From: Bdellovibrionales bacterium
Lineage (GTDB): Bacteria; Bdellovibrionota; Bdellovibrionia; Bdellovibrionales; JAUICD01
Direction: 5' to 3'
Length of the DNA stretch: 64,000 nucleotides
Assembly (NCBI GenBank): GCA_965197425.1
Contig: CBDANC010000012.1
Location: forward strand, 153,077-217,076
How positions within the stretch are numbered: the first letter of the stretch is position 1; each line of letters begins with the position of its first letter. Positions 1,579 through 62,331 of this stretch are shown one piece after another. A program made the position numbers and the translations under genes. The notes under the pieces were generated by a model that was not told where the DNA came from, made no database searches, and worked only from the letters and a program-made list of their open reading frames with translations.

Positions 1579-2019
1579 CTAAAAACTTAATACTATTTTT
1601 CTAAAATTGGGGTCTTCTACATAATCAATACTAACTTCTACCACAGGCATTTTTAAATCAACTTCCTTTAAAAGCCCTGGCCACTCCACTACTATTAACC
1701 TACAAATATTTTTATCACCCAACAAATTTACTACATCCCAAAATCCAGTAGAATCTAAGTCCACCAAACTCTTTAATCTATAAAAATCAAAGTGATCTAT
1801 GACATAATTTTCAAAAACATAACTGTTGTGAATAGAAAATGTAGGAGAACTTACCAAACTAAATTTTCCACCACTTAACCTATTAACCAAAAATTTTACA
1901 AACTGAGTTTTTCCAGAGCCTAAATTACCACTTAATAAAATAACACTACCAAAAGTTAAATTATCACAAAATTTATAAACAACATTCTCTAAACCCTTCA
2001 AATCAACTTGCTTTTCCAC
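1579..2019 (-). CDS. tsaE: tRNA threonylcarbamoyladenosine biosynthesis ATPase TsaE
   Basis: GNLGSGKT P-loop, SSPTF, HFDFYRL, VEWP; probable GTG start at 2019 (the ORF extension to 2094 reads through a repeat). Confidence 0.93.
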   Translation of the reverse strand: MEKQVDLKGLENVVYKFCDNLTFGSVILLSGNLGSGKTQFVKFLVNRLSGGKFSLVSSPTFSIHNSYVFENYVIDHFDFYRLKSLVDLDSTGFWDVVNLLGDKNICRLIVVEWPGLLKEVDLKMPVVEVSIDYVEDPNFRKIVLSF

Positions 2020-2193
2020 CACCTTGCAGGTGGAAGCATTTGATGGCGATTCAACATACATCATATTTTGTACTCCACCGGCCAAATGCCACACCCGTAG
2101 GGTGCCACCTTGCAGGTGGAGGCATTTTTAATATTATCTAAAACACACATCATATCTTGTACTCCACCAATTAAACACCTGTGCCGTAGGCAC
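2019..2193. repeat. Family A element, two tandem units (GNA-triloop mini-hairpins flanking a central imperfect stem)
   Basis: Hairpins CCACCT-TGC-AGGTGG (2019, 2105), CACCC-GTA-GGGTG (2092), GTGCC-GTA-GGCAC (2181); core CATCATAT(T/C)TTGTACTCCACC repeated. Confidence 0.9.
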
Positions 2194-2203
2194 TTGTAAG
2201 GCA

Positions 2204-3670
2204 CTAATTTTCTATACTTTTTAATATCTTGGGAAGAAGTTTTAAAACATCACTGGCCATCATAGAATTTTTTGAAAATCCCTGTTTTACCCATTCATCT
2301 GCAGTTTTGCCATGAACATAAGCTGCCAAGCCAGCAGCATCCAAAACATCCAAACCTTGTGAAATAAAACCAACAATCATACCAGATAAAACATCACCAG
2401 TACCAGCTGTGGCCAACGCAGAATTACCAGAGTTAATAATATCTACCCTTTTAGTATTACCAATCAAAGTTCTAAAACCCTTTAATAAAACATTACATCC
2501 ATACACCTCTGAACATTTTTTAAGAGCAAGAATCCTATTATTCTCCACTCCCGAAGCACTGCACCCAAGTAAACGAGCCATCTCACCACTGTGAGGAGTC
2601 AAAAGCCAACTAGGAGGAAGCTCTCTAATACCATACCTTGCTAAAACACTTAATCCATCTGCATCTAAAACCACATTTTTTATTCCCTTACTTTTTAAAA
2701 AATCAATTAACTCCTTAACCCTTTCATCTATACCCAAACCAGGGCCTATTGCATATGCCTTGTAATCAACACAAATCTCAGTAACACTTTCAATTTTTGA
2801 AGCAATAATATCAGGCGTTTCGGCCAAAAAACCTTTGGGATCATCAAAGCTATTTAAAAATACATAACCAGAACCAACTCTAAATGCACCACGACTAGCT
2901 AAAACCCCAGCACCCCACATACCATCTTTACCAGCCACTATACAGGTCTTTCCATTCGAACTCTTGTTGCTATCAAAAGCCCTTTGAGGAAACAAACTGC
3001 AAGCAGTTTTTTTATTAAACAAAAAAGTACTATCAGCAACCTTGTCTACATCAGTATACCCAATATCAACACAAAAAATTTCTCCAGCAAGCCCAGGGCC
3101 CTCGCATATATAAAGCCCAGGCTTAGCTAAACCAAAAGTCAATGTCCACTGAGCTTGTACCGCTTCATTCAAAATTCTACCAGTATCACAATCTAAACCA
3201 GAAGGTATATCCACACTAAGCACCGGAGCAAGAGACTGGTTCATACAAGATATAGCACTAGCATACAAACCATCCACATCTTTACTTAATCCCACACCAA
3301 AAATACCATCTAATATAAGACTTGCCTTATCAAACTTATCTTTAATAGCCTCCGATCTATTAAACTGAACAACATCAATACCCACATCATCCAAATGCTT
3401 ATTCTTATCTCCCAACAAAATAACACTGACATCTTCAAACCCAGCATCAATCAATAATTTTGCTGCATATAAAGCATCCCCGCCATTATTCCCAGGACCT
3501 ACCACAACCAAAATAGACTTAATCTCCAAATAAGAAGAAATTTGATTTTTTATAAATGAAAATAACTCACCCGCAGCCTTCGCCATAAGTTTTTTAGAAT
3601 CCCCAAGCTCATCAAGCCTCTTGCACTCCTCTCTTAAAGCAAGTCTAAACCTAAAATTTTCCCTCATCAT
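2204..3670 (-). CDS. nnr: Bifunctional NAD(P)H-hydrate epimerase/dehydratase (YjeF)
   Basis: GPGNNGGD, DIPSG, GPGLG, LTPHSGEMARL, AGTGDVLSG motifs. Confidence 0.95.
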   Translation of the reverse strand: MMRENFRFRLALREECKRLDELGDSKKLMAKAAGELFSFIKNQISSYLEIKSILVVVGPGNNGGDALYAAKLLIDAGFEDVSVILLGDKNKHLDDVGIDVVQFNRSEAIKDKFDKASLILDGIFGVGLSKDVDGLYASAISCMNQSLAPVLSVDIPSGLDCDTGRILNEAVQAQWTLTFGLAKPGLYICEGPGLAGEIFCVDIGYTDVDKVADSTFLFNKKTACSLFPQRAFDSNKSSNGKTCIVAGKDGMWGAGVLASRGAFRVGSGYVFLNSFDDPKGFLAETPDIIASKIESVTEICVDYKAYAIGPGLGIDERVKELIDFLKSKGIKNVVLDADGLSVLARYGIRELPPSWLLTPHSGEMARLLGCSASGVENNRILALKKCSEVYGCNVLLKGFRTLIGNTKRVDIINSGNSALATAGTGDVLSGMIVGFISQGLDVLDAAGLAAYVHGKTADEWVKQGFSKNSMMASDVLKLLPKILKSIEN

Positions 3671-3766
3671 ACCTCATACTCCACCGACTAAATACCAACC
3701 CTACCATAAATTACACCGTATTATAAATGTAAGGATTTAGGTGAGTGGCAATAGCTTTTATATAAT

Positions 3767-3884
3767 GGGATCGGCATCAGTGTCCAGAGCTGGGCAACCA
3801 TCAAGCTAAAAAGTGCCCTGGCTTCACTTGTACTTTGTACAATCGTTACGTCAGTCCATTTTTTAACTTGATTCGGAAGACCTT
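3767..3884 (-). repeat. Family B element (long-hairpin type)
   Basis: Reverse complement AAGGTCTTCCGAATCAAGTTAAAA...TTTTAGCTTGATGGTTGCCCAGCTCTGG...GATCCC matches copies at 30611 and 63848. Confidence 0.9.
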
Positions 3885-3957
3885 GAAAGGTTCAAGCAAA
3901 GCGTCCCAGAGTTAATGCTGTTGCCATGAACCTTATACCATAATGACAAAAAACGGT

Positions 3958-4103
3958 GAAGCCGAAAGGCTTCGAAAGCCCCCCGCAGGGGAATACTACG
4001 CCCGTAGGGCGCCACCTTGCAGGTGGAGGCATTTTTAATATTATCTAAAACACACATCATATTTTGTACTCCTTCAATTAAAAAATACTACGCCCGTAGG
4101 GCG
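3958..4103. repeat. Family A element with extra mini-hairpins; overlaps the pdxJ stop
   Basis: GAAGCC-GAAA-GGCTTC, CCCC-GCA-GGGG, CGCCC-GTA-GGGCG twice, CCACCT-TGC-AGGTGG; core nearly identical to 2105-2175. Confidence 0.9.
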
Positions 4104-4816
4104 GTTTTCATTTTTTTTACAGATGCTTTCAAGCCGCCATTTAAAGCATCACAGATCAAAAAGTGTCCTATGTTAACTTCCCTCAAATGAGGTAGCTTTG
4201 CTATTACCTTAGCATGCTCAAAGTCCAATCCATGTCCAGCATGAACCAATAAACCAAGTGAATGTGCCTTTAAAGCACTACCTTTAAGTCTCTGCAGCTC
4301 AGCCTTTTTGTTCTTAACCAAACAAAATCTTCCAGTATGAAGTTCAACTGCATCAGCACCAACATTCTTCGAAGCAACAACTTGTTTTATCACCGGGTTT
4401 ACAAATAAACTTACCTTAATACCAGCTTTTTTCAAAGCTGTAACAACTCTTTTGATTTTAACTTTGTTTTGAAAAACATCTAAACCACCCTCCGTAGTAA
4501 GCTCTTTTCTCTTCTCTGGTACCAAACATACCCAGTCAGGACAAAGCTTCAGTGCAATCTTAAGCATGCCACTAGTACAAGCCATCTCTAAATTAAGCGA
4601 AACTCTAGATTTACTTTTGATAAGGTGCTTTTTGATCTGAAAAAGATCTTCGTCCTGAATATGCCTTCTGTCCTCTCGTAAATGAACAGTGATTTGATCA
4701 GCACCACCCAAGGTAGCACTCTTAACCTGCTCCACTATATCAGGATACCAAGTAGTGCCACCTCTAACCTGCCTCAAAGTGGCTGCATGATCCAAATTGA
4801 CCCCAAGTAGGATCAC
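4088..4816 (-). CDS. pdxJ: Pyridoxine 5'-phosphate synthase
   Basis: LGVNLDHAATLRQ, HLREDRRHI, LTTEGGLD, HAGHGL, NIGH. Confidence 0.97.
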   Translation of the reverse strand: MILLGVNLDHAATLRQVRGGTTWYPDIVEQVKSATLGGADQITVHLREDRRHIQDEDLFQIKKHLIKSKSRVSLNLEMACTSGMLKIALKLCPDWVCLVPEKRKELTTEGGLDVFQNKVKIKRVVTALKKAGIKVSLFVNPVIKQVVASKNVGADAVELHTGRFCLVKNKKAELQRLKGSALKAHSLGLLVHAGHGLDFEHAKVIAKLPHLREVNIGHFLICDALNGGLKASVKKMKTALRA

Positions 4817-6171
4817 AGATCACACTCCTTTAGAAATTCACAGATTTCCTTAGATGCTTTAGATACCTTATCCTTATTAGAACCTTCAACCAAAACTCTT
4901 AAAATTGGTTCTGTACCAGAATATCTGATAAATATCCTACCCTCTTTTCCTAAATCCTTTTCTATTTTAGATATAAGATCACTATACCCAGACACACTAT
5001 CCAAAGACACTTTATTAGAAACTTTTAGGTTAGTTAATACCTGAGGGGTTTCAGGAACAAGCTTTCTTAAAGCACCAAGCTTTATTCCTTGATTAACCAT
5101 AATTGCAAGCACATTTAAAGCTGTTACCAAACCATCACCAGTTGTAGAGTGATCTAGAAAAATTATATGCCCGGACTGCTCTCCACCTAATGTAAGATTT
5201 CTTTTTTTAAGCTCACTAATGACATACCTATCACCTACATCAGTAGTCACAACATCTATACCATTATCAGACAAAAATTTTCTAAAACCAAAACTACTCA
5301 TGTGAGTTGCTACAATTTTATTGTCCACAAGCTTATTTTTTTTCTTTGCTTCCAACGCACAAATAGCCATTATATGATCGCCATTTAAAATACCACCCGA
5401 TTCATCACACATAATAACTCTATCACCATCACCATCTAAACTAATCCCTAAATCAGCAGAAGTTTCTTTCACAACCTTAACAAGTCCCTCTGGATACAAA
5501 GCACCACAGTTGTCATTAATGTTAAATCCATTAGGCTCATTATTTATCACCTTTACCTTAGCCCCAAGCTCTTCAAATATTCTAGGACCTACCTTGTAAC
5601 AAGCACCATTAGCACAATCTAATACCAAAGAAATTCCATCCAAACTCAAATTACTAGGAAATGTATTTTTGACAGAAACAATATACCTACCAGAAGCATC
5701 ATCTATTCTCTTAGTTCTACCAATCTCATCTTCTAAAGAAACCTTTGAGCTAAAATCCTCTTTTACCAACTGCTCTATCTTTTCTTCCAATGTTTTAGAA
5801 ATCTTAAAACCATTAGAGTCAAAAATTTTGATTCCATTGTCATAGTAAGGATTGTGAGAAGCAGATATAATAATACCAGCATCAACTCTCATACTTTGAG
5901 CCAAAAAACCAATCCCCGGAGTACTAAGAGGCCCTACTAACAAAACATCTATACCCATAGAATTGAAGCCACTAGCCAAAGCCATCTCTATCATATAACC
6001 AGATAAGCGAGTGTCCTTGCCTATCAACACCTTACGTCTCTTGGTAGTATTACTGCGGTTCTCTCTACCCCTTAAAATCAAACCAATGGCCTGCCCTACC
6101 TTTAAAACAAGCTCAGGAGTAATAGGATATACATTAGCCCTAGAACGAATACCATCCGTACCAAATAACAT
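4813..6171 (-). CDS. glmM: Phosphoglucosamine mutase
   Basis: FGTDGIR, SASHNP, DGDGDR, GGEQSGH, RYSGTEP. Confidence 0.97.
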   Translation of the reverse strand: MLFGTDGIRSRANVYPITPELVLKVGQAIGLILRGRENRSNTTKRRKVLIGKDTRLSGYMIEMALASGFNSMGIDVLLVGPLSTPGIGFLAQSMRVDAGIIISASHNPYYDNGIKIFDSNGFKISKTLEEKIEQLVKEDFSSKVSLEDEIGRTKRIDDASGRYIVSVKNTFPSNLSLDGISLVLDCANGACYKVGPRIFEELGAKVKVINNEPNGFNINDNCGALYPEGLVKVVKETSADLGISLDGDGDRVIMCDESGGILNGDHIMAICALEAKKKNKLVDNKIVATHMSSFGFRKFLSDNGIDVVTTDVGDRYVISELKKRNLTLGGEQSGHIIFLDHSTTGDGLVTALNVLAIMVNQGIKLGALRKLVPETPQVLTNLKVSNKVSLDSVSGYSDLISKIEKDLGKEGRIFIRYSGTEPILRVLVEGSNKDKVSKASKEICEFLKECDL

Positions 6172-6242
6172 CCAAAACCTCCCTAATCTAAGCTTCTTAA
6201 TAATACTTTACTTCTAGTACCCTAAGTCAGTTTAATAAACAA

Positions 6243-6329
6243 GTGCCTACGGCACAGGTATTTAATTGGTAAAGTACAAAATGTGATGTATGTTTTAGCT
6301 ACTGTTAAATGCCTCCACCCGCAGAGTGG
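6243..6329. repeat. Family A element, single unit (opposite orientation to the 2105 copy)
   Basis: GTGCC-TAC-GGCAC AGGTATTTAATTGGT...AAATGCCT CCACCC-GCA-GAGTGG. Confidence 0.88.
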
Positions 6330-6332
6330 TGG

Positions 6333-8288
6333 TTAGACGGTTGCTGGGGCTTTTGCGCCTATGGGTGTTTTTTTGTCTTCCTTTTCTTTCTCCAAACACT
6401 CTTCTCTTTGGATATTTTCTTCTTTTAGAGTTTTATCTCTTTTACTTCTCAAATTCTCGATATCCTCTGAGGTTCCACCTTTCATAAGCAGGTTAACCTC
6501 ATCCCCGTCTATAGTTTCATATTCTAGCAGAGTTTTTGCTATATTCTTTAAGATTTGTAAGTTTTGTTTTAGAAGATCTTGTGCTTTTTTATGTCCTTCA
6601 GTGACAAACTTTCTCACCTCGGTATCTATTTCTCTAGCCGTACTATCTGAGTAATCTTTTTCATGACTAGTTTGCATGCCTAAAAACACAGGGTCGTCCC
6701 GTTTTTCAAAGTGAAGAGGACCTAGCTTTTTACTCATCCCCCATTCACATACCATTCGCCTTGCTATTTCAGTAGCCCTTTCTATGTCATTGCCAGCACC
6801 TGTGGTGTAGTCCTTAAAAATAATTTCCTCTGCTGCTCTTCCTCCAAATAAAAAGGCTATCATATTGTGTGCCTTTTCCTTGGTTAGATTCAGCCTCTCT
6901 TCTTCTGGCAAAGTTTGAGTAACACCCAAAGCCATTCCTCTTGGAATAATTGTAACTTTGTGAATAGGATCAACAGAGGGCAAAAGCTTTCCTACCAAAG
7001 CATGTCCTGCTTCATGGTATGCAGTAATCTCTTTATCCTTTTTACTTACCACCATTGACTTTCTTTCAGCTCCCATCAACACCTTGTCTTTTGCAAGCTC
7101 CAGATCTTTCATATCAACTATGTTTTTATTAAACCTAGCTGCCAATAGGGCCCCTTCATTTACCAAGTTTCTTAAGTCAGCACCTGAAAATCCAGGGGTT
7201 CCTCTAGCTATGGTTTCCAAATCAACTTCTTTAGCAGTAGGAACTTTTTTGGTATGCACTTCTAAGATACTTTTTCTACCTTTAATATCTGGTTTGTTTA
7301 CAACCACTCTTCTATCAAAACGCCCTGGCCTTAAAAGTGCAGGATCCAAAACATCAGGTCTATTAGTTGCAGCTATTAAAATAACTCCTTCATTACTGGC
7401 AAAACCATCCATTTCCACCAAAAGCTGGTTTAGAGTTTGCTCCCTTTCATCGTGGCCTCCACCCATACCAGCACCCCTGTGCCTTCCAACTGCATCTATT
7501 TCATCTACAAAAATTAGGCATGGTGCATTTTTCTTTCCCTGTTCAAATAAATCTCTAACTCTAGAAGCACCAACACCCACAAACATCTCTACAAAGTCAG
7601 AACCTGAGATAGAAAAAAATGGAACCCCTGCCTCCCCAGCTACAGCCCTTGCAAGCAAAGTTTTACCCGTTCCAGGAGAACCTACCAATAAAACACCCTT
7701 CGGTATAACCCCTCCAAGCCTGGTGAATCTCTTTGGATCTTTCAGAAACATTATAATTTCATTTAACTCTTCTTTAGCCTCATCAACTCCAGCCACATCC
7801 TTAAATGTAATCTTGTTTTTATTCTCAGTAAGAAGCCTTGCTCTACTTTTACCAAAGCTCATAGCCTTCCCACCACCAGCCTGAAGCTGCCTGAAAAACA
7901 AAACAAATAATACGACTATGATAATCAGAGGAAGCCAACTTATTAACATACTCTGAAAAAAACTCTTTTTGTCATTACTCACATAATTTGGAATAATGTT
8001 ATTTTCCTTTAAAAACTTAAAACTCTCATCACCAGTGTTACCAATTATACTGAAACTGGTTCCACCATATTTGTCCTTAGCTTCCTGTGTAAATTCTCCT
8101 GTAATTTCACCTGTTTTTTCACTAAAAGTGACACTTGAAACATCTCCACTCAAAACCGCAGTGTGTAGTTTCTGGTAGTTAAAATCACTTACCAGTTCAT
8201 CTTGCTTTTTAGAGTAAAATTGAAAACTTAAAATAACTATAAGAAACAAGAACATCCATAGTGCAAAAGTCTTCTGAGCTTTTTTCAT
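6333..8288 (-). CDS. ftsH: ATP-dependent zinc metalloprotease FtsH
   Basis: Two TM segments, [16 protein letters not shown] region [23 protein letters not shown]. Confidence 0.98.
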
Positions 8289-8381
8289 AAACTAAAAATT
8301 TCCCTATTCGCTACTTCCACATTACTCTCTTACCGGATTGCCCGACTGAAATACCTTTAGTAACTCTTATCGTATTTATAC

Positions 8382-9311
8382 CTACAAAGCTGGGCAACTT
8401 TCAGTTCTTGCTGAGACCTTCAGTCTAACATGTGTTGTATTAACTAACCACAACCTTTTTGCAACCTTAAACTTAAAATTTTTTGTTTTACTCCTAAGTC
8501 TTTTCTCTATCTCATGTATTTGAGAGTGTGAATAATTTTTAATGTTTTTCAATAGCATGTATTTGGCTATGGCCTCATGTCTTAAATCAATACTAAACAG
8601 CGACATTGTATGCCTGTCTAAACCATCCTTAGTAATACAAAAGCTTAAATCTAGACGCTTAGCATTGCTAATTAAATCAAGAGATCTATGCATATTTTTG
8701 CTTGCCTTAGGGGCCTTCGTTTTAAGTGCATTAAGCCACACATTTCTAACCCAGTTTCTGATATTGGAGTTATCTTTGTTTGAAGGATCTTCTAAAAATT
8801 TGGGTTTAAATTTTAAAAGTTCATCCTTCGAAAAATTTAAAAGTGGTCTAAAAATATTATTATCCATGATCCTCATTGATACTAATCCATTTGCACCAAC
8901 CCCTCTTATAAGTCTTAAAATCCTTGTCTCCAAAAGATCTTCCATATGATGTGCTGTTACTATTAAAGCCTTTTCCCTTTTTGCTATACTTTTTAAAAAC
9001 TTTAATCGCTCCCTCCTACACTCTGTTTCAGTCTTTAAAGTTGTTTTGTGCTTTTTATAAAAAAACTCAAAGTCGTAAAGGGCTGTCTGTTTTTTTACAT
9101 GCAAGTATGCATTTTTTCTGTATGAACTTATGCCACCATGATGAAAATGAGCTACAGCTATTGTAATAGGGAACTTCTTTGATATGTGGTGCATAATCTT
9201 TAACAAAGCCATAGAGTCAAGCCCACCAGATACCGCAAGGATCATGTTGGTGTTTAAAAGATCGTACTCTAAGATTGTCTTTATAACCTTTTTTTCTAAT
9301 GCATTATACAT
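8382..9311 (-). CDS. tilS: tRNA(Ile)-lysidine synthetase
   Basis: AVSGGLDS PP-loop, TAHH.ED..ET, RPLL, EDPSN; upstream of ftsH. Confidence 0.92.
   Translation of the reverse strand: MYNALEKKVIKTILEYDLLNTNMILAVSGGLDSMALLKIMHHISKKFPITIAVAHFHHGGISSYRKNAYLHVKKQTALYDFEFFYKKHKTTLKTETECRRERLKFLKSIAKREKALIVTAHHMEDLLETRILRLIRGVGANGLVSMRIMDNNIFRPLLNFSKDELLKFKPKFLEDPSNKDNSNIRNWVRNVWLNALKTKAPKASKNMHRSLDLISNAKRLDLSFCITKDGLDRHTMSLFSIDLRHEAIAKYMLLKNIKNYSHSQIHEIEKRLRSKTKNFKFKVAKRLWLVNTTHVRLKVSARTESCPAL
8386..8420 (-). repeat. Miniature family B/C element inside the tilS 3' end
   Basis: Reverse complement AAGGTCTCAGCAAGAACTGAAAGTTGCCCAGCTTT carries both family end motifs. Confidence 0.65.
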
Positions 9312-10540: not shown

Positions 10541-10554
10541 AGGAGTAACGTATA

Positions 10555-17759: not shown

Positions 17760-18026
17760 CAACTCTAAGGGGAAATATCTGATATTGTCTGGTAGGTTAA
17801 GTTGCACGACCTTGGGTATAACCTTTTTCTAGATAATATGGTGTGTTTTTTAGATAATTTATAAAATTTTTATCCAAGCCCTCATCTTTTGTCCCAAGCA
17901 GCCATGGTGTTTCCGAGCAAAGCTCAAGAAAACGCGGTTGCTAGCTAGAAGATAAATAAATGTTTACACATTGTTGAGGGTTTTATATAAATAGACTGTG
18001 TTTAAGAAATGTATGAGGGAGATTTT

Positions 18027-30867: not shown

Positions 30868-31161
30868 ATGAAAAAATTAAAAACTTACCAGCTTGCAATT
30901 AACTTTTATCACAAAGCTGAAAACCTACACCTAAAGGAACCGCTTAGAAGCCAATTCCAAAGAGCTATCCTAAGCATTGTGCTAAATATTGCAGAGGGAA
31001 GTGCGAAGCCAACAGCTAAAGATAGAAGGAAGTTTTATTCTATAAGCCTTGGGTCACTTAGAGAAACACAGGCAATACTAGAAATCATAGACCACAAAAA
31101 CCTAATAGAAAAAGCAAATACACTGGGAGGATATCTATACAAACTATGCAAAAATACATAA
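30868..31161 (+). CDS. Four-helix-bundle protein (23S rRNA IVP / Avd-like fold family)
   Basis: LRSQFQRA..SI.LNIAEG, F..ISLGSL.E signature. Confidence 0.9.
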   Translation: MKKLKTYQLAINFYHKAENLHLKEPLRSQFQRAILSIVLNIAEGSAKPTAKDRRKFYSISLGSLRETQAILEIIDHKNLIEKANTLGGYLYKLCKNT

Positions 31162-51618: not shown

Positions 51619-51633
51619 ACTGTTATAAAGAGA

Positions 51634-52188: not shown

Positions 52189-52192
52189 GTCT

Positions 52193-52941: not shown

Positions 52942-54612
52942 ATGCTGATGAAGCTTAAACAGACCAGGCTACTTATTCTATGCTGTGGAAGTTTGTCTAT
53001 TGCTATTTTAGTTATCTTGCTTGTAACCAGAAATAGTTTGATCAACACACAATATCAGTTTGTGAAAAATGAATCACAAAAAGTAAACCATATATTTTCT
53101 TTATTGGTAAGTGAATCTCTAAAAGAGAAGCATGTGGATCTTATCAATGTTGCGACAGATAAAAGGAATAACAGATTATCATTTTATGATTTTATTGCTG
53201 TTTTTGTAATGGGTAATAAGGATGGTAAACTGGTAGAGAAATTTTCTGATTCCATCACACATATACCAAGCGGTTATGGACATGTAATTTTAAATAAGCT
53301 TCCCACACAGGTGGAGTATCCACTACGAGTGGAGTATCCACATTTGGAGTCTCAGATTAATTTGCAGCCGATCAAGTCTACTGATGGTGTAGATTTAATA
53401 GCGATGATAACAAAGCACAAGGGCAATATTTTGATTGGCCTGTTTAAAAACAAATTTCCTGCTATGGTTCAAAAGTTTATTTTAGATCACAGTGAAGTTG
53501 TGCTTATGAACAAGCAGGGGTTTGTGCTGGCAAGCTCATCTACTTATGGTCAAAAAATAGAAAGCCCGATAACCAGAGCAATCCAAAATAATAGCTTTAA
53601 CACCCAAGAGCTATTTCATTACTCTGATCACTTTCAGGAAATGGTATCTAGTATTGCATCTCTAGCAGACACAAACTTGTATGCTTCTGTATCTACCTCT
53701 CATGGAATAATTTATTCCTATGCAAATAAGGTATCTAAAAACATCCTTATGATTGGTATTGCTGTGGTGTTGATTAGCGTAGGCATTATATTGGCCTTTT
53801 CAATTAAGTTATCTGAAGAGTCTAAAGAGCCTGAAAGGCATAAACCAAAACCTGCCAATAATACTGAAGATATTAAGAAAGGCTTTAAAAGATATGAGTC
53901 TTTAGAGAGGGTGACATTGTCTGAGTTGGGCAATCAAAGAAAAAACGCTTTCAGAGAATTTAGCTCCTTTGTGTCTTCAAAAACCACAGGGCCCTTAGCC
54001 AGTGCAATTGGGCATATACAAATAATAAAGGCTAAAAACTCTAATCAAACACTAGAAAGGCACCTTGAAAAAGGAGAGCGAGCTATAAGGGATGTGCAAG
54101 ATATAGTAAGTAAGCTTGCTCAATTTTCAAATACTGATTTCAGAGAAAAAACAACTTTGGATGTAAATCAAACTTTAAATGATACAATCAGGCTTATGGA
54201 GTATAACTTAACTGGTATAGCTATAAATACCAATTTTAACAAGCCTAAACCAGTGCTTGCCAACCAGGCCCAGTTAAAACAAGTTTTCTATGATCTGATA
54301 TCTAAAATATTGGATGATATGAAACTAGTAAATACCAGTGAGCTTTTTTTAGAGACAAAAAATATTGATACCTTAGTAAACATAACCTTTAAATATTTAT
54401 CTAATGAAGGCTTTGACCCCCTACCCTACAGCGATAAAAACCTGAATTTAGCAGCATGCTTAGGTATTATAGAAGAACATGGAGGTAGTATCACCCCTAG
54501 CCTTGATGGTGGTGGTACAGTGATTACCCTAACATTGCCCGTCTTGAACAAGGATGTCTATTTAAAAAATCAAGTATTAACAAATGTTAATATATCCAGC
54601 CCAACTGTTTAA
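52942..54612 (+). CDS. Membrane sensor with a degenerate histidine-kinase core (pseudokinase)
   Basis: Two TMs around a Cache-like domain; HK scaffold (QLKQVF, IIEEHGGSI, T.LP) but H, N and G boxes eroded. Confidence 0.65.
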   Translation: MLMKLKQTRLLILCCGSLSIAILVILLVTRNSLINTQYQFVKNESQKVNHIFSLLVSESLKEKHVDLINVATDKRNNRLSFYDFIAVFVMGNKDGKLVEKFSDSITHIPSGYGHVILNKLPTQVEYPLRVEYPHLESQINLQPIKSTDGVDLIAMITKHKGNILIGLFKNKFPAMVQKFILDHSEVVLMNKQGFVLASSSTYGQKIESPITRAIQNNSFNTQELFHYSDHFQEMVSSIASLADTNLYASVSTSHGIIYSYANKVSKNILMIGIAVVLISVGIILAFSIKLSEESKEPERHKPKPANNTEDIKKGFKRYESLERVTLSELGNQRKNAFREFSSFVSSKTTGPLASAIGHIQIIKAKNSNQTLERHLEKGERAIRDVQDIVSKLAQFSNTDFREKTTLDVNQTLNDTIRLMEYNLTGIAINTNFNKPKPVLANQAQLKQVFYDLISKILDDMKLVNTSELFLETKNIDTLVNITFKYLSNEGFDPLPYSDKNLNLAACLGIIEEHGGSITPSLDGGGTVITLTLPVLNKDVYLKNQVLTNVNISSPTV

Positions 54613-54726
54613 TATAACAAAAACTCACAACAAAATGTATTTGCCATTGACAAGAATGGCTTGATAGCATGAATAGAAACTGAAGTTAATACTATATATC
54701 AGGTTCTCATTTAGAGGATAGGCACT

Positions 54727-55632
54727 ATGGCAGATCAAAACATATCAAACCTTGAAGCTCAAAATAATTTTTCTCACTCTAATAAATCATTAAAACTCCA
54801 CAGCAAAATGTTTTTTTCTAAACTAAGGACCCTTACTAAGTACAGTGATATAATTAGCCATTTTGTAGAAAATCTTTATGAATTGACAAAGGCCAATATA
54901 ATTTACTTGGATTATCATAGAACGCACTCTCTTTTAAGTATATTGCACTATACGGGCAACCTAGAATTTGAATATAAAATTGGCATAACCTGTACACCTA
55001 ACGAAGCTGAAAGGATACTGTTTAAAAATAAGCTTCCAAATCTAGATAAAATCAAAGGACTTACTACTTATGAGACCATACCTATTCAATATGATAACAA
55101 TTTGCATGGAATTGTAATATTAGATGGGATTAAAAATTTACAAGCATCTGGTTTCAGTTACCAGTTGAGCTGCCAATATGCAGCTCATTTTGCAAGTTTT
55201 TTGCATGCATTTAAGTTAGCAGCACTTAATAAAAAAATAATTGACCCAACTACCGGAGCTTATTCTAAAAGGCATTTTTATAAAACTCTATATGAAACAT
55301 TTGATAAATCAAAAAAGCTGAGTTTGGTTTCAATTTGTTTATCCAATATAAAATCAATAGATCAAATAAATCATAGAATCTATAGAATGAGAGAGAAAGA
55401 ATTTGTGATTCTTTTTAGAAAAAACCTAATAGATACAGCTTCCCTCGCAGAAAAAATAAGGAGAAGCTTGTTGGTAGGAGGTTCGAAAGCAAGTATAGGT
55501 GTTTCTGCATACCCAGAAACTTGTCATGATGCAGATTCTTTATTATATACTGCTCAGTCCGCAATGCTTGCGGTAAAAAATAAGTATAGAGTATGTACTG
55601 CAAAACCCATGGGTAAAGAAATTAACTTATGA
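54727..55632 (+). CDS. Degenerate GGDEF-domain protein
   Basis: DPTTGAY..RHF, YRMREKEF in place of RYGGEEF, AEKIR, SIGVSAYP. Confidence 0.7.
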   Translation: MADQNISNLEAQNNFSHSNKSLKLHSKMFFSKLRTLTKYSDIISHFVENLYELTKANIIYLDYHRTHSLLSILHYTGNLEFEYKIGITCTPNEAERILFKNKLPNLDKIKGLTTYETIPIQYDNNLHGIVILDGIKNLQASGFSYQLSCQYAAHFASFLHAFKLAALNKKIIDPTTGAYSKRHFYKTLYETFDKSKKLSLVSICLSNIKSIDQINHRIYRMREKEFVILFRKNLIDTASLAEKIRRSLLVGGSKASIGVSAYPETCHDADSLLYTAQSAMLAVKNKYRVCTAKPMGKEINL

Positions 55633-56684
55633 GTTTTGAAATATCTCTGTCAAACTTGGATTACAACATCAATTCAATCCGAACTTATATCGGCAAAGAT
55701 ACATTTTGTTGCCCAATGGTAAAAGCAAATGCTTACGGCCATGGAGATATTCTTATTTCGAATAGATTAGTCAAACAGGGTATAAATACTTTAGGAATTG
55801 CAACAATTCAGGAGGGAATAAAGCTTAGAAAAAATTTCTCTGATATAAAAATTTTAGTTTTTAGTTCAAACTATGATGTTCAAAACATTATTGATTATAA
55901 ACTTACCCCTGTTATTAGTGACATGAACGATCTTAAAAGATTTGAAAATCATAAAATAAATATTCATTTAAAATTTGACACTGGTATTGGTAGATTTGGT
56001 TTTGACATAGAAGATCCTCCCATAATCAAAGAGATTTTATCTAAAAGCAAACTGAAGCTAAAGGGCTTAGCAACTCATTTTGCCAGTGGTTTTGACATAA
56101 ACAATCCTGAAGGTTTTAGTAGAAAACAGATTACTAGGTTTAACAAGATAAAATCACATTGGAAGAATAATATACAAGCTCACTATCACAACTCTGTAAG
56201 CCTGATGGCAAGAAAATATAGTGATAATATTGGGGCAAGACCAGGATTGTGTATGTATGGTGCATATCCTCCTAAATTAGACACATTTAACTTCAAGATA
56301 AAACCTGTGATGAGTATTACATCAGAAGTTATACAGATAAAATCTTTAGCACAAAATACACCAATATCATACTCACAATCCTATGTATTAGATAAAAATT
56401 CAAAAATAGCGGTGGTAGCTTTTGGCTATGCAAATGGTATTATTAGAAATGCCTCAAATAAACTACAGGTTTTGATAAACGGAAAAAAATATCCTCAGAT
56501 AGGTTTCATAACCATGAACTCTATGATTATAAAAGTTGATAATAGCGTTAATATAGGTGACAAAGTGACTATCCTTGGTCAAGACGCAAACAACAGCATT
56601 ACTGCATTGGATATAGCTAGCTTTGCTGGTACAATACCCAATGAGGTATTGACCAGCTTTGGCAATGGAAAAATTGATACATAA
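55629..56684 (+). CDS. alr: Alanine racemase
   Basis: VKANAYGHG, HLKFDTG..R.G, RPGL..YG, GYANG. Confidence 0.95.
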   Translation: MSFEISLSNLDYNINSIRTYIGKDTFCCPMVKANAYGHGDILISNRLVKQGINTLGIATIQEGIKLRKNFSDIKILVFSSNYDVQNIIDYKLTPVISDMNDLKRFENHKINIHLKFDTGIGRFGFDIEDPPIIKEILSKSKLKLKGLATHFASGFDINNPEGFSRKQITRFNKIKSHWKNNIQAHYHNSVSLMARKYSDNIGARPGLCMYGAYPPKLDTFNFKIKPVMSITSEVIQIKSLAQNTPISYSQSYVLDKNSKIAVVAFGYANGIIRNASNKLQVLINGKKYPQIGFITMNSMIIKVDNSVNIGDKVTILGQDANNSITALDIASFAGTIPNEVLTSFGNGKIDT

Positions 56685-57447
56685 CATTGGTAATACAGCA
56701 ATAAGCTTTACAAAAAAAACAGGTGAAGTAATCCTTCACTTTTATAGCTCTTTTATAAATATTAAACCATTTAGGTTTAAAGAGCTGTTGTTACAAATTG
56801 AGTTTGTAGGTAACAAATCTATTTTAATAATTTGTATTACCGGTTTATTTACTGGATTTGTGTTTGCTTATCAAACATGGCTAGGGCTTAATTTATTTGA
56901 TGTAGAAAATATAGTTGGCACAGTTTCTGCTCTAAGTATATTTAGAGAAATTGGACCTGTAATGACAGGAATTATTTTATCAGCCAGAGCAGGAGGAGCA
57001 ATTGCCGCAAGACTGGGGGCAATGGTTGTGACAGATCAAGTAGATGCCATAGAAGTGATGGGAATTAGTAGCAAAAACTACCTTATAGCTCCCAGAATAT
57101 TAGCCAGTATAATTGCAACTCCACTATTAACGGTTGTGTTTAGTATATTTGCTATGCTTGGTTGTTATGTATTGGCAGTAAAGTTAAACAATTTAGATGA
57201 AGCAGTATTTTGGAGTAAAACCTTAATGTGGCTTGGGCCTAGAGATATTATAGAAGGTCTCATTAAAGCAAGTGTGTTTGGGTTATTATTTTCGGTAATA
57301 TGTACTTACATTGGGATGAACACCAAAAAAGGTGCAGCGGGGGTTGGAGAAGCAACCAACAACAGCATTGTAACCAGTATCGTATGCATAATTGTAGCCG
57401 ACTATTTTATAACTAGAATTATAGGATTATTTTGGGGTTTTATATGA
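56665..57447 (+). CDS. mlaE: MlaE-family ABC permease
   Basis: REIGPV, RAG.AIAA.LG.M...QVDA, GAAGVG.AT. Confidence 0.92.
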   Translation: MEKLIHNIGNTAISFTKKTGEVILHFYSSFINIKPFRFKELLLQIEFVGNKSILIICITGLFTGFVFAYQTWLGLNLFDVENIVGTVSALSIFREIGPVMTGIILSARAGGAIAARLGAMVVTDQVDAIEVMGISSKNYLIAPRILASIIATPLLTVVFSIFAMLGCYVLAVKLNNLDEAVFWSKTLMWLGPRDIIEGLIKASVFGLLFSVICTYIGMNTKKGAAGVGEATNNSIVTSIVCIIVADYFITRIIGLFWGFI

Positions 57448-58205
57448 AAAATGCCATAGAATGTATTGGGCTAAAAAAAACTTTTGATAATAATGAAAAA
57501 GTTTTAAATGGAATAAATCTTAAAATAGAAAAAGGTTCTATAACAGTCATTTTAGGTTTAAGTGGAGCTGGTAAAAGTATCCTATTAAAACATTTATTAG
57601 GCCTGATGCTACCAACTGATGGAGTGATAAAAATACTTGGGAATGATCTACAAGCTCTTAACCCAGAACAATTAAAGGAACTAAGAGGAAGATTTGGAGT
57701 TTTATTTCAAAACTCAGCTTTATTCAATGACATGACAGTAATAGAAAATGTTATGTTTCCTCTAAAAGAAAAAAATAGATCCACCAAATCATCAAATTAT
57801 GATTTATATAGCAAGGCTTCTAAAATGCTAGAGTCCCTTGGAATAGAACCCATTCAATTTGAAAAGTTACCATCTCAAATTAGTGGTGGTATGCAGAAAA
57901 GAGTGGGATTAGCACGAGCTTTAGTGATTCAACCACAAATTTTGTTCTATGATGAGCCTGTAACAGGGTTGGACCCTATTACAACATCCATGGTCAACAA
58001 ACTAATTGTAAACACACACAAAAAAAGTTCAGGACTTACGTCTGTAATTGTTTCTCATGATCTACTATCATCGCTCTATATAGCCGATAAGATTGCGATG
58101 ATACATGATGGGAAAGTGTTGTTATTTGGCACTCCTTTGGAGTTTAAAAACAGCAAAAACTCACATGTAAGAAGGTTTATGGAAACACATTATGAGAACG
58201 CTTGA
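57444..58205 (+). CDS. mlaF: MlaF-family ABC ATPase
   Basis: GLSGAGKS, SGGMQKRVGLARA, YDEP.TGLDP. Confidence 0.92.
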   Translation: MKNAIECIGLKKTFDNNEKVLNGINLKIEKGSITVILGLSGAGKSILLKHLLGLMLPTDGVIKILGNDLQALNPEQLKELRGRFGVLFQNSALFNDMTVIENVMFPLKEKNRSTKSSNYDLYSKASKMLESLGIEPIQFEKLPSQISGGMQKRVGLARALVIQPQILFYDEPVTGLDPITTSMVNKLIVNTHKKSSGLTSVIVSHDLLSSLYIADKIAMIHDGKVLLFGTPLEFKNSKNSHVRRFMETHYENA

Positions 58206-59457
58206 ATTTCGTGTTGGACTTTTGGTTATAACAATTTTGAGCATAGTTGTATCTATGCTTTTTGTTGTTGGAGATAATTTTGGTAATTTTGGAGCCAATC
58301 AAAGCTTTTATTTTTTTCTAAATGATGCAAATGGAATTACTAAAAAGAGCAAAGTAAAATTAGCTGGCTTAGATATTGGTTATGTAGAAGATATTGACCT
58401 CGTAAAAAATAGAGCAAAAATAAACCTAGTTCTCAATAGAAAAGATATAACCTCTGATGCATTCGTAGAGATTAGAGATGATGGATTACTTGGAGATAGA
58501 TATATAACCATAGTAAACGGCACTTCAAATGAGTTATTAAAAACCAATCAAGAGATAACCCAGGTTGTAGATGGAGGAACTTTTGATAGAGCGGTGGATA
58601 AAATTGCATCTGTTGCAAGTTCAATAGAACTTATACCGGAACTATTAGGTGAATCTAAGAACACAAAATCTCCTTTAATAAACACAATAAAAAATTTGGA
58701 AAACATGACTCATGCATTAAGTGAAGTTACAACCAAACACAAAGAAGAAATATCAAATCTATTAGTTTCAATGAATCGCATAACTAGTAGAGTAGATAGT
58801 GGATTAGAAGGTTGGGATGAATCATGGAATAGAATAATGAAGTCAGTTGACAACATGGATATTGCATTTGAAAACATAAAAGATATAACAGAAAAAATAC
58901 AAAATGGTGAAGGGGCCTTGGGTAAGTTAATCTACGAAGATGAAACTGTGGATAACATTAACACAGCTGTTTCAGGTATCAGTGAACTTGTTGAACAGTC
59001 TAATCAAATAAAAACATTTTTGGATTTAAGGGGCGATTATTTTACATCTGATTTGAGGGCAAAAACAAATCTATCTATTGTAGTACAACCAGGTCCAGAC
59101 AGACAATTTGAAGCCTCCATAGTTGATGATCCTATAATTGGAAATAACAGTAAAATAAGATTTAGTGCATTGTATGAGCAAAAATTATATGACCTTGCAA
59201 TTAAGGCAGGTATTATAGAAAACACTGTAGGGCTTGGATTAAGTTATTTTGCTCTTCCAAAGCTAAAACTAACTTTAGAGTCATTTAAGCTTGCTGAGAG
59301 TTTACCAAGGTTACGAAGCTATTTAAAATATGGTTTTACTAATAGTATATATTTAGTAAGTGGAATGGATAGACTACTACAAACCCCTTCTTTTTTTGTT
59401 GGGCTAGGCATAATGCTTTCAAACGATGATCTGAAAACACTATTTCTCTTACCTTGA
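58192..59457 (+). CDS. mlaD: MlaD/MCE-family protein with helical and C-terminal beta-rich extension
   Basis: E.RVG, MCE motifs V.LAG..IG.V and GLLGDRY. Confidence 0.85.
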   Translation: MRTLEFRVGLLVITILSIVVSMLFVVGDNFGNFGANQSFYFFLNDANGITKKSKVKLAGLDIGYVEDIDLVKNRAKINLVLNRKDITSDAFVEIRDDGLLGDRYITIVNGTSNELLKTNQEITQVVDGGTFDRAVDKIASVASSIELIPELLGESKNTKSPLINTIKNLENMTHALSEVTTKHKEEISNLLVSMNRITSRVDSGLEGWDESWNRIMKSVDNMDIAFENIKDITEKIQNGEGALGKLIYEDETVDNINTAVSGISELVEQSNQIKTFLDLRGDYFTSDLRAKTNLSIVVQPGPDRQFEASIVDDPIIGNNSKIRFSALYEQKLYDLAIKAGIIENTVGLGLSYFALPKLKLTLESFKLAESLPRLRSYLKYGFTNSIYLVSGMDRLLQTPSFFVGLGIMLSNDDLKTLFLLP

Positions 59458-59465
59458 GGGTTACA

Positions 59466-61169
59466 ATGTCTTCTGACTTGAAATGGATTATATTAAAAAA
59501 TCATGAAATACTAGGGCCTTTTACTACCTCTCAAATAATAACTAGCATATATGAAGGAAAATACAGACCAAATGATCAAGTTAGCATGAGAGTAAATGAC
59601 TCTGCTACCACAGTATCTGATGACAAAGGTTCTAATAGTTATTTTTTAAATTGGCGAAAGTTAGCTGAAGTATCTGAGTTTGCAATATTCAGAGGTAATC
59701 AAGAAGATACACTGGTGAATGACACACAAGATGACTGTACTGATCCAGGAGATGGGTATACAGAACCAAGTATCGATGACACAAAAGTAACTGACTTTAG
59801 TTATAATGATAGTGGAACAGGGAAAGTTAGTAGAGATGGCCATTATCAAGTATCGTCTAAAAAAACCAGATTAATTGTAAATACAATTTTGGTTTCAGCT
59901 GCTGTGATATTATTAGGTTTAGCTGTATATAAGAGGATGGTTAAAATTTCAAATGAGGACAAAGATTGGCATAAAATAGGGCTAAGCCATAAAAAAATTG
60001 GAAACTACAATAATGCCATTACCAGTTTAAAAGAAGCATATAAAAATACACCCTCTGATATTGATGTAGCTTTTAACTATGCTGAAGTTTTAATAGAAAG
60101 AGGGCAGTTAAATAAAACATCAGAAGTTTTAGATAAAATAACCGCAGCCGGAGCAGAACAAAGAAAGTTAAATTTACTTGGTATAATTAATTTGAAGAGG
60201 AAAAACTTACATGAGGCCAAAAGTTTATTTAACAAAGCTTTGGATATTGATCCATCATATACACCTGCACTCATCAACTCTGGAATTGCAAATTTACATG
60301 CTTTTCAATATACAAACTCACATAGTAAATTCGAGTTAGCGTATCGATCAGGTTCTAGGGATCCGATACTGATAATGAGCAAATTTTTAGCTACTGTTAA
60401 GCTGTTTGAACAAACAAAAAATCCCACACTGCTGCAATATATGAAAAGAGTTTTAGCATCAGCTTTAAATGCACAAACTGGATATAGAATTCACTATCAC
60501 TTGGCATTATCTTATTTAGAAATTTTACTAGGTAATACTGAGGCTGCTGAAAAATGGTTTACAAATATTATTGTTTTAGATGCTGATTTAGAACCTAGTG
60601 ATTTCTTGTATGATTTAGAAATCTTTAGAGATCATTTAAGCTGGGATACTATGTATTCACTAAGCACAGAGTTTGATGATTCGTTAGCTGATGAACCTAG
60701 AATTGAGGCTATAAAGGGTATATTGCTGCTTAAAAGCAAAAAATACGACGAAGCTGAAAGCACTTTATCCAACGCAATTTTACGAAACAGTGAAGACATA
60801 GGTATTAGATTACTATACTCCTATCTAAAAATGAAGTTGGGAGTTTTATCAGAAGCCAAAGCTAATATAGATCTTGTTTTACACGCTGACCATCCTCTAT
60901 TAGTTTTAATAAAATCAAAACTATGTACTGAAAGCCAAGAAAATTGTCCTAGTTTTTTTGAAGAGATGTCACAAACTGATCACTACAAATTACAAGGTAT
61001 TACTGGTTTAGCTGAGCATTTTATAAGTGCTAAACAATATAGTAAAGCCAGTAGTTTAGTAAACACAGGTCTTGAAGCTTCAGACTCATACATCCCGTTG
61101 CTTATTCTTAATCAAAAACTTGAAAGCATAAGTAAAAGTCCAATACGAGTGGAGTACCCACCAAAATAA
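59466..61169 (+). CDS. Membrane-anchored TPR protein with an N-terminal GYF-like domain
   Basis: W......LGPF, one TM, several TPRs. Confidence 0.7.
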   Translation: MSSDLKWIILKNHEILGPFTTSQIITSIYEGKYRPNDQVSMRVNDSATTVSDDKGSNSYFLNWRKLAEVSEFAIFRGNQEDTLVNDTQDDCTDPGDGYTEPSIDDTKVTDFSYNDSGTGKVSRDGHYQVSSKKTRLIVNTILVSAAVILLGLAVYKRMVKISNEDKDWHKIGLSHKKIGNYNNAITSLKEAYKNTPSDIDVAFNYAEVLIERGQLNKTSEVLDKITAAGAEQRKLNLLGIINLKRKNLHEAKSLFNKALDIDPSYTPALINSGIANLHAFQYTNSHSKFELAYRSGSRDPILIMSKFLATVKLFEQTKNPTLLQYMKRVLASALNAQTGYRIHYHLALSYLEILLGNTEAAEKWFTNIIVLDADLEPSDFLYDLEIFRDHLSWDTMYSLSTEFDDSLADEPRIEAIKGILLLKSKKYDEAESTLSNAILRNSEDIGIRLLYSYLKMKLGVLSEAKANIDLVLHADHPLLVLIKSKLCTESQENCPSFFEEMSQTDHYKLQGITGLAEHFISAKQYSKASSLVNTGLEASDSYIPLLILNQKLESISKSPIRVEYPPK

Positions 61170-61175
61170 AAAACA

Positions 61176-61976
61176 TTATCTGGTATTAACCAGTGATTTT
61201 ATATTTTCACCTGCCAGCATTCTTACGAGTAAGCCTAATGTTTTTAATACCGAGCCTGTTACATCTATCATTCCTTGATGTTTTTCACCTGTTCTAAGTC
61301 TCTCTTGCTCTATTTTATCACACACACTACCCATACTGCGATTGGTCTCTTTTAAACGATCTTTTAACTCCAAAAGTCCCTTTATCTCAAATTCATTTCT
61401 TACAAACTGAATAAGCCAATAGAAATTTCTTATAGTTTTTCTCAAACTATGGTAGTCCGAATAGGTTAATCTGACCTGTGCTTCACCACCCTTTTCTATC
61501 ACATCGATTGCCTGTTCTAGGCGTGATTTTAAAAACGCATGTAGCTCAACTGTGGACGTACTGATAAAGTCCTTTTTAAAATCAAGCTTTATTATATGCT
61601 CTAGATTATCACCCAACAATTTATCGATAAATTTATTTGTTTTTCTGGCTTGTTCTTCTACCTTAGCCTTTGCTATAACTGCATCTTTTAACTTCCCCAA
61701 CTTAACTACCAGTTTGTTGAGATCACGTGGAATAGAGTGAGATATATCAAACATAAAATATGCTGCTCTTAACCTTTGTGCATGTCGCCTCATCTGCAGA
61801 AGTTTCCTAAAATCATCTGTGCTGGCATACTTGCCAGAAACAAGCTTTGATAAAAGCTCTTTAAATTCTACTAGTTTCTCTAGGGAAAATGACTTTTCAA
61901 ACCTAGATACGCAGATATTAAATATAAAAGACATATCACCGTCTAAAAGATCCAGTATCTCACCGAACGATATCAC
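61176..61976 (-). CDS. CHAD-domain-like protein
   Basis: R...QRLRA, LG.LKD, YHSLRK..R, MG...D pattern. Confidence 0.6.
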   Translation of the reverse strand: MISFGEILDLLDGDMSFIFNICVSRFEKSFSLEKLVEFKELLSKLVSGKYASTDDFRKLLQMRRHAQRLRAAYFMFDISHSIPRDLNKLVVKLGKLKDAVIAKAKVEEQARKTNKFIDKLLGDNLEHIIKLDFKKDFISTSTVELHAFLKSRLEQAIDVIEKGGEAQVRLTYSDYHSLRKTIRNFYWLIQFVRNEFEIKGLLELKDRLKETNRSMGSVCDKIEQERLRTGEKHQGMIDVTGSVLKTLGLLVRMLAGENIKSLVNTR

Positions 61977-62014
61977 CCTATGCTTTTTTATATCTTCTTT
62001 AATAAGACTCCCAA

Positions 62015-62331
62015 GTGCCTACGGCACAAGCATTTAGTTGGTGGAGTACAAAGTATAATTTTTGTTCTCACCTCCACAAACCGCCTCCACCCGCAGGGTG
62101 GTGCCTACAGCACGGGTATTTAACTGGCACCTTACAGGTGCAGGTATTTAATTAGTGGAATACAAAATATAACGTATGTTTTCGCCACCATCAAATACCT
62201 CCCCCGTAGGGGGTGCCTTACAGGCACTGCTATTAGCTGGTGGAGTACAAGATATGATTTATGTTTTACCACCACTAAATACCTCCCCCGTAGGGGGTGC
62301 CGAAGGCACAAACACCAGCACCCGTAGGGTG
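62015..62331. repeat. Family A cluster (three units plus fragments, nine mini-hairpins)
   Basis: GTGCC-TAC-GGCAC, CCACCC-GCA-GGGTGG, GCACCT-TAC-AGGTGC, CCCCC-GTA-GGGGG twice, GTGCCT-TAC-AGGCAC, GTGCC-GAA-GGCAC, CACCC-GTA-GGGTG. Confidence 0.92.

Follow-up and report, generated by a model that had tools for sequence, protein, structure and literature searches.

A dispersed repeat capped by GNA mini-hairpins and its base-exact position at gene boundaries in a Bdellovibrionales genome

Introduction

Repetitive extragenic palindromic (REP) sequences and the larger units built from them, the bacterial interspersed mosaic elements (BIMEs) and the REP doublets forming hairpins (REPINs), consist of short GC-rich hairpins, two of which lie in inverted orientation on either side of a central stem; they are extragenic and lineage-specific, occur in tandem clusters, often 3′ of genes, and are sometimes in frame with coding sequence (PMC6006769, PMC3479197, PMC3733652). 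HUH TnpA enzymes bind hairpins of single-stranded DNA (ssDNA) and need a 5′ guide tetranucleotide (PMC3479197, PMC6006769), and for the TnpA-REP of E. coli both ssDNA cleavage and strand transfer are described (PMC3479197). Insertion sequences (IS) of the IS200/IS605 type also have ends that are defined by hairpins, produce no target duplication and form head-to-tail junctions as of an excised circle (PMC6006769). Miniature transposable elements with inverted repeats (MITEs) such as Correia, ERIC, RUP and RPE are shorter than 200 bp, have inverted ends, are found fused to the ends of open reading frames (ORFs) and have in-frame intragenic copies (PMC2229807). Here, we describe a repeat, family A, that resembles all of these systems in part. 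It was noticed in a stretch of 64,000 nucleotides (positions 153077-217076 of contig C12, referred to as the window) of the genome of a Bdellovibrionales bacterium.

Family A ends in hairpins of a type known from other contexts. In the GNA mini-hairpin of phage N4 promoters and the G4/ssiA priming sites, a stem of 5-6 bp carries the loop C(GNA)G or T(GNA)A; blunt hairpins of this kind withstand 3′ exonuclease, and their DNA form is far more stable than the RNA form (PMC13037366). The source genome (G000; 1.6 Mb, 35% GC, 99% complete, 15 contigs) was compared with a congener (G001; median protein identity 67%), a Nitrospinota genome (G474) and a Lysobacterales genome (G472). Both G000 and G474 are draft assemblies from which repeats may be missing.

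Results and Discussion

Family A is a dispersed repeat with covarying GNA hairpins

A reading of the window from the sequence alone had proposed a dispersed, non-autonomous element comprising 19 GC-rich hairpins in four clusters (2019-2193, 3958-4103, 6243-6329 and 62015-62331). All four clusters were found at these positions; 17 perfect hairpins with GNA loops (or the complement TNC) were recovered in these intervals, and the two stems said to carry one mismatch were located by reading the sequence (6315-6329 and 62102-62114). Most of the hairpins indeed belong to family A, but those at 3958-3973 and 3981-3991 end a different repeat, element F, to which one of the 19 has to be assigned. A proposed remnant at 3677-3696 proved to be the right half of a family A unit, whereas the family profile hidden Markov model (HMM) did not recover a second one at 17837-17858, which stays unconfirmed.

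The HMM, built from 12 units and applied with a cut-off of E<1e-3, detected 16 loci in the source genome; the best match in the reversed genome used as control had an E value of 1.6. Together with about four further loci that consist of arm and hairpin alone or match weakly, this gives some 16-20 loci. The predicted unit size of about 85-90 bp agrees with the 84-92 bp spanned by 15 full units (nominally 87 bp). Their pairwise identity has a median of 71% and a range of 55-97%, the most similar units (93-97%) being those of one tandem array. Each unit has imperfect terminal inverted repeats of about 23 bp and hairpin stems of 5-6 bp with 3-nt loops, and its computed transcripts fold. The layout is strand-symmetric as described before, each strand carrying its GNA hairpin at the 3′ end. 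Units join head to tail without a spacer, and the outer end is the foot of the hairpin. Copies are nearly all intergenic and occur in both orientations; the leader regions of prepilins contain four loci consisting of the arm only, of which three are in frame within a called ORF. Family A is a real family of dispersed non-coding repeats, as had been supposed.

The choice of loops is not random. GNA or TNC was found in 18 of the 24 GC-rich triloop hairpins of the window, compared to 0.62 on average and no more than 2 in 50 dinucleotide shuffles, and genome-wide in 45 of 106 perfect ones against a trinucleotide background of 11%. When arms were picked by their leader and the 5′ half of the stem only, a pairing 3′ half followed in 30 of 46 matches; 29 of these have a GTA or GCA loop and the remaining one is a one-base register shift, while the 16 unpaired matches are chance matches of the loose pattern. 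The claim that stems change while pairing is kept was borne out by 23 distinct hairpins, in which 110 of 115 inner cells are Watson-Crick pairs (shuffles: mean 74.9, maximum 87), a count inflated by the fact that the set was partly selected for pairing. Eighteen of them are closed by C-G and five by T-A. GNA loops are also found in other repeat families of the source genome and the congener and are thus no peculiarity of family A.

The congener lacks the units at syntenic sites. The nnr-tsaE spacer measures 13 bp there, compared to 185 bp of element in the source genome, the spacer between ftsH and glmM is some 100 nt shorter, without unit 4, and the cluster at 62015-62331 is missing. No family A copy was found anywhere in the congener or by blast in 40 relatives, and the arm pattern, with 22 matches in the source genome, gave 0-1 match in each of 400 other genomes of the phylum. 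Contigs of four sequencing runs contained no clean empty allele, and those of two runs show a joint that skips 3759-3884, the insert of another repeat (family B). The flanks of nine clusters share no common direct repeat, although a target duplication could have been erased by later deletions. Viral pattern scans yielded no matches, chance 14-mers or, in one case, an unexplained match, and a viral scan with a housekeeping protein yielded nothing; blastn against plasmids and phages gave chance matches only. A metagenome scan returned 27 loci without a full unit, 19 of them a single coding stretch, and a search centred on Poribacteria gave a single match in five of 101 genomes. No description of family A was found in the literature searched, most of which was outside subscription journals.

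The same end occurs in another phylum

A search for the shared end, restricted to one genome per species, returned 22 loci, of which six lie in one Bdellovibrionales record and six in the Lysobacterales genome, while one led to the Nitrospinota genome. The latter carries the left-type end GCCT-CCACC[C/T]-GCA-[G/A]GGTGG in 67 copies at ≤1 mismatch, with one match in the control. These ends sit on mosaic elements of about 100-130 bp, the far end of which is often degenerate or interrupted. Here too the closing pair is exchanged (T-A in 52 and C-G in 29 of 89 ends), and the arm of 8-10 nt beside the hairpin is conserved in sequence between the two phyla. As 32 relatives from the phylum of the Nitrospinota genome have 0-3 matches each, one end has been amplified in single genomes of two phyla. 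At ten loci of that genome, situated at contig ends (L333, L340, L344, L376, L409, L413, L422, L434, L441 and L447), elements are interrupted by the end of the same multi-copy sequence, likely an IS by which they are targeted.

Two look-alikes were obtained. The congener has a sister family built on CCAACC-NNN-GGTTGG; 21 of its 22 loops are GNA or TNC, and its arm resembles that of family A. The repeat of the Lysobacterales genome (L319) is a canonical REPIN with a GTGG foot; it has TGC-left/GCA-right polarity and a similar arm, and copies flank a Y1 gene. Repeats linked to HUH enzymes can therefore have the layout of family A.

Ends are parked base-exactly against indispensable sequence

The position of the ends relative to genes was analysed in the Nitrospinota genome, counting stop codons of ORFs of at least 80 codons that point at the element. 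From 122 matches at ≤3 mismatches, 89 distinct ends at ≤2 mismatches were retained, and 87 were scored, two having too little flank. Twenty-two of the 87 lie at offset 0 of a stop codon (TAG 11, TAA 7, TGA 4; binomial p ~4e-24), 14 lie 1-30 nt from a stop, four abut the 3′ end of a tRNA and one has a tRNA farther off; the other 46 include junctions with other copies. A preference for certain triplets does not explain this parking, because a stop-like triplet follows 23 ends and 22 of these are real stops.

In the source genome, where right-type feet are ambiguous by one base, four of 22 outer ends abut a stop, five are read into by a gene, two lie 3 and 9 nt away and 11 have nothing nearby. 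The coordinate used for one of these feet is off by about 10 nt, which leaves its class unaffected. Three of the abutted genes end exactly like their orthologues in the congener, whereas infB and pdxJ have lost the last codons of theirs. The clusters of the window are surrounded by housekeeping genes (tsaE, nnr, pdxJ, glmM, ftsH and gspK). Cluster 1 occupies the space between nnr and tsaE to the base, bordered by the stop of the former and a candidate GTG start of the latter: its partial right-hairpin copy (2194-2203) abuts the stop (2204-2206, minus strand), and foot base 2019 is the first base of the GTG (minus strand). The element also contains GGAG followed after 8 nt by an ATG at 2064 in frame with tsaE (minus strand; 2019-2064), and tsaE may draw its ribosome binding site and start codon from the element core, gaining about 15 residues. 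Furthermore, pdxJ reads 16 nt into the right hairpin of unit 3 (stop at 4088-4090), the left foot of unit 4 lies 3 nt (CCA) past the ftsH stop, and the cluster at 62015-62331 sits between divergent genes.

Ends are also found at the cleavage site of prepilins. A family A end overlaps the Gly-1 codon of a prepilin gene at C13:112270, the paralogue of which has a normal leader, and the sister end of the congener abuts Gly-1 in two and a stop in three of the 29 hairpins listed, internal and duplicate ones included. Prepilin-like genes whose leaders are partly repeat ends up to the cleavage glycine were seen at C12:83033, C15:151364, C14:350406 and C13:112380 and, in the congener, at L183 and L227. 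The building of prepilin leaders from repeat ends is independent in the two genomes.

Some sites may be explained by direct insertion at the only base tolerated between coupled genes, for example that of the ABC-permease gene at C12:125729, the stop of which overlaps the next start in the congener. Direct insertion of this kind does not account for the ends at tRNAs or at Gly-1.

Family A compared with described systems

Family A works like a REPIN or BIME in that it consists of extragenic, multi-copy inverted doublets that form clusters. It has, however, no GTAG/GTGG foot, stems of only 5-6 bp and hairpins that form the very end of the unit; its stems covary within one family, its genome contains no REP-associated tyrosine transposase (RAYT), and its ends are parked base-exactly. 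The flanks 5′ of the hairpins vary (TAG, CAA, AAA, CCA, CTA), as do those in the Nitrospinota genome, and GTGG is confined to tandem junctions, being supplied there by the adjacent hairpin. The suggested link to REPs through GTAG did not survive, since GTAG of family A runs through the loop, while REPs carry it unpaired 5′ of the foot (PMC6006769, PMC3479197), the GT[AG]G tetranucleotide lying 0-2 nt from it. The CGTC super-family of REPs differs by its CGTC tag, a stem of 8-9 bp, a loop of 4-5 nt and a 3′ CCA tail; family A has 5-6 bp, 3 nt and no CGTC. In REP systems the guide sets the dinucleotide at which the enzyme cleaves ssDNA; no CT rule was seen at the ends of the Nitrospinota genome.

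Unlike in IS200/IS605, the hairpins of family A are terminal rather than subterminal, with one GNA hairpin per strand instead of both on one; there is no fixed target tetranucleotide, and no TnpA or TnpB in the genome. Palindrome-associated transposable elements (PATEs) are non-autonomous IS200/IS605 derivatives. A conserved target tetra- or pentanucleotide beside the left end, as in PATEs, was not detected, as 32 different trinucleotides follow the 87 ends of the Nitrospinota genome, with a purine bias at the adjacent base on the other strand. In contrast to the MITEs mentioned above, family A copies share no TA termini or target duplication, and the structure of the tip rather than its sequence is kept (PMC2229807). 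Phage N4 promoters and G4/ssiA priming sites are single functional sites (PMC13037366), whereas in family A the GNA hairpins cap a dispersed repeat. For the target hairpins of diversity-generating retroelements, no reverse transcriptase (PF00078) was present in the source genome or the congener, and an Rfam search detected only a single tRNA in the whole window and nothing at E≤1 in 1900-6500. Family A is not a member of the REP/REPIN class and also fails the PATE and MITE definitions.

Possible mechanisms

Our best, though still tentative, reading is that family A is a non-autonomous, REPIN-like element moved as ssDNA in trans by an HUH enzyme of the Y1 type, which was not found or has since been lost, and that deletions anchored at its foot were halted by selection. 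The enzyme would read the shape of the hairpin and the short arm instead of the stem sequence, and would cut and rejoin at the 3′ foot, a place at which the GNA cap would give protection from 3′ exonucleases as well. Flanking DNA would be lost in repeated deletions anchored at the foot until purifying selection forbids the removal of a further base, which would result in base-exact parking, and near-identical tandems might stem from local duplication after loss of the enzyme. In favour of this reading are the dispersal of the units and their absence from syntenic sites of the congener, the covarying stems, the lack of a shared direct repeat in the flanks, the end common to two phyla, the look-alike beside a Y1 gene and the parked feet.

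Several observations weigh against this reading. The cognate enzyme had been assumed to be encoded outside the window, and profile searches of the source genome found none, with no match to PF01797, PF04480, PF02371, PF07282 or PF00078. Y1 (PF01797) had no match in the congener either, tblastn with four Y1 proteins gave a best E value of 0.12 and a scan for the HUH motif was negative; the five Y1 matches of the Nitrospinota genome are without such a hairpin in the loci analysed. The conserved GTAG/GTGG foot or target tetranucleotide that characterised HUH systems need is absent, and the RAYT-linked look-alike L319 differs from family A in having a GTGG foot. Strains related closely enough to reveal one clean insertion did not turn up. 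The four exact abutments in the source genome all involve TAG, the G of which possibly comes from the element, and three of the four orthologues end in TAA, so that direct insertion after TA also fits them. Finally, GNA caps recur in families B, D and F and in the congener family, the sequences of which are otherwise different; this could reflect selection for stable hairpins at the level of the host instead of one enzyme.

Other enzymes were searched for as well. IS110, TnpB and reverse transcriptase had no match in the source genome or the congener, and an IS91 search gave no match in the control genomes. The Y1 genes of two genomes from the same family as the source genome and the congener were rejected as partners, as their flanks differ from family A. 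In the Nitrospinota genome, the Y1, GIY-YIG and DUF559 genes are flanked by other repeats or none, and no ORF was found between two inward-facing ends in the stretches analysed, which cover part of the genome.

The missing guide together with the missing enzyme leaves room for a route without any dedicated enzyme, in which 3′-terminal GNA caps survive host repair: resection would stop at the foot, rejoining would fix the deletion, and capped fragments would be recaptured. The polarity is exactly that which protects both 3′ ends, blunt GNA hairpins resist 3′ exonuclease (PMC13037366), no candidate enzyme lies beside these ends in three genomes, and the cap is common to several families of different sequence, including an 18-bp one (family D) located mostly in ORFs. 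We nevertheless regard this route as unlikely, since the arm conserved between two phyla suggests recognition by a protein and horizontal spread, the distribution is patchy both in the phylum of the source genome and among the relatives of the Nitrospinota genome, and no such route is described in the literature consulted.

Somewhat more doubtful is a partnership with another small enzyme, a nuclease or recombinase from the GIY-YIG, DUF559/Vsr or Rpn families or from one not yet known, of a kind that often has palindromic repeats of its own on both sides. The Nitrospinota genome has such repeats around a small GIY-YIG gene (L351) and around a fragment of DUF559 (L453), but these are not family A-type ends, and both genes were rejected as candidates. 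Rpn-like genes are present in the source genome (one) and, by tblastn, at 14 places in the congener, yet no family A copy lies near the former. DUF559 is absent from the source genome, its sole match in the congener being in an ORF of 1408 amino acids (aa), and GIY-YIG was found in both only in ORFs of about 610 aa, that of the source genome being a 612-aa ORF of UvrC size.

It is improbable that family A is a MITE of a DDE transposase, either TA-targeting or of the IS1634/IS1595 type, the inverted repeats of which happen to be hairpins. The imperfect inverted repeats would agree with this, WA precedes many right-type ends, TAG could be TA plus a G of the element, and the source genome contains an ORF and a fragment which, from their motifs, we take to be IS1634-like and IS1595-like, respectively. 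The ends of these two are unlike family A, however, there is no common target duplication, stems change in sequence with pairs kept, and the Nitrospinota genome has ends starting with C directly after full TAA, TAG and TGA codons. Least probable is that units are maintained at gene ends chiefly for their RNA, as terminators or 3′ stabilisers: 11 of the 22 outer ends lie at or ≤9 nt from the 3′ end of a gene or overlap it, transcripts fold and a loose rule calls six of the 18 family hairpins terminator-like, one on both strands, but their T tails are broken, proper U-tracts are absent, few hairpins have terminator-like tails at all, the layout is strand-symmetric with copies that separate divergent genes or lie in frame within prepilin leaders, the units are missing from syntenic sites of the congener, GNA triloops are a DNA feature and, with the stems present, loops cannot be GNRA.

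Family A units and other repeats

The family A units of the window are compiled in Table 1. Units 1 and 2 are joined head to tail with zero spacer, and element F has likely inserted into a family A arm at 3696-3991.

Table 1. Family A units and associated features in the window.
Feature	Position	Strand	Evidence and remarks
Unit 1	2019..2104	+	HMM E 2.9e-19; left hairpin 2019-2033 (TGC), central imperfect stem, right hairpin 2092-2104 (GTA)
Unit 2	2105..2193 (+ partial right hairpin 2194-2203)	+	HMM E 2e-20
Right-half remnant (core + arm)	3677..3695	+	sequence; ends in AATAC
Element F, not family A	3696..3991	+	~170 bp + family B insert at ~3759-3884; GNA hairpins at end; AATAC both sides
Remainder of split unit	3992..4011	+	arm + right hairpin CGCCC-GTA-GGGCG
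Unit 3	4012..4103	+	HMM E 1.4e-17
Possible centre remnant	17837..17858	-	family HMM without match; unconfirmed
Unit 4, single copy	6243..6329	-	HMM E 4.1e-22
Unit 5	62015..62101	-	HMM E 1.9e-21
Half unit (right arm + one-mismatch hairpin)	62102..62127	-	sequence, HMM
Unit 6	62128..62213	-	HMM E 1.1e-22
Unit 7	62214..62297	-	HMM E 4.5e-19
Two extra hairpins	62297..62331	+	GAA loop 62297-62309; GTA loop 62319-62331

Further repeats were noticed in the source genome. Element F is a structured repeat of about 170 bp with two GNA hairpins at its end; other copies lie at C6:6597, C15:87148-87320, C15:392380 and C15:426460, two of the five copies are next to family A, and the window copy has no Rfam match. 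Family B (about 100 loci; 3759-3884 in the window) is an abundant modular repeat that has a GNA hairpin inside and AAGGTCTTC/AAGGTGAGG and GTTGCCCAGC at its ends. Its end motif, too, is clustered near stop codons: among 212 matches, 11 lie at offset -1 and 15 at +4/+5 of a stop, and a related element is found at the end of an Rpn-like ORF in the congener. Family D has an 18-bp unit, RGTGGA-TAC/AAC-TCCACY plus 3 nt, with 49 hairpins, for example at window position 53310 (C12:206386); it is often tandem and in frame, and 42 of the 49 hairpins are inside ORFs. Family C is a palindromic repeat of about 150 bp with few copies (C1:3766-4968, C4:8028-8497 and C11:36966-37653).

ORFs of about 97 aa, presumably of a four-helix-bundle-like family, occur at 18 loci flanked by heptamer arrays, for example at 30868-31161 of the window (C12:183944); they have no homologue in the congener, and several follow directly after stop codons or a tRNA end. 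These elements were rejected as mobiliser of family A, the link being weak (four of 15 versus 51 of 583 spacers, p=0.04). Contig C9 (7.3 kb) has telomere-like repeats and an ORF which we take to be piggyBac-like; it looks eukaryotic and may be contamination. Contig C10 (7.9 kb) has a phage-like appearance. In the congener, a small two-gene insert lies 3′ of pdxJ (L179:4081-5200), and behind it the 3′ end of pdxJ is present a second time.

Conclusions

Family A has a sharply defined end that is common to two phyla and leaves a base-exact footprint at gene boundaries, which makes two mechanisms testable: an enzyme acting in trans, or host repair stopped by the GNA cap. A broader proposal, which we consider rather unlikely, is that there is a cross-phylum class of self-capped mini-elements with exonuclease-proof GNA ends that persist, spread and consume the DNA beside them as far as the first base that cannot be spared, either via host repair or by an enzyme family new to mobile DNA. 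If this were true, self-capped elements would rewrite protein termini and pilin leaders, with stops, tRNA 3′ ends, start codons and the prepilin glycine as limits. In the Bdellovibrionales genome analysed here, repeats replace protein C-termini (infB, pdxJ), supply parts of pilin leaders and possibly provide a start signal (tsaE).

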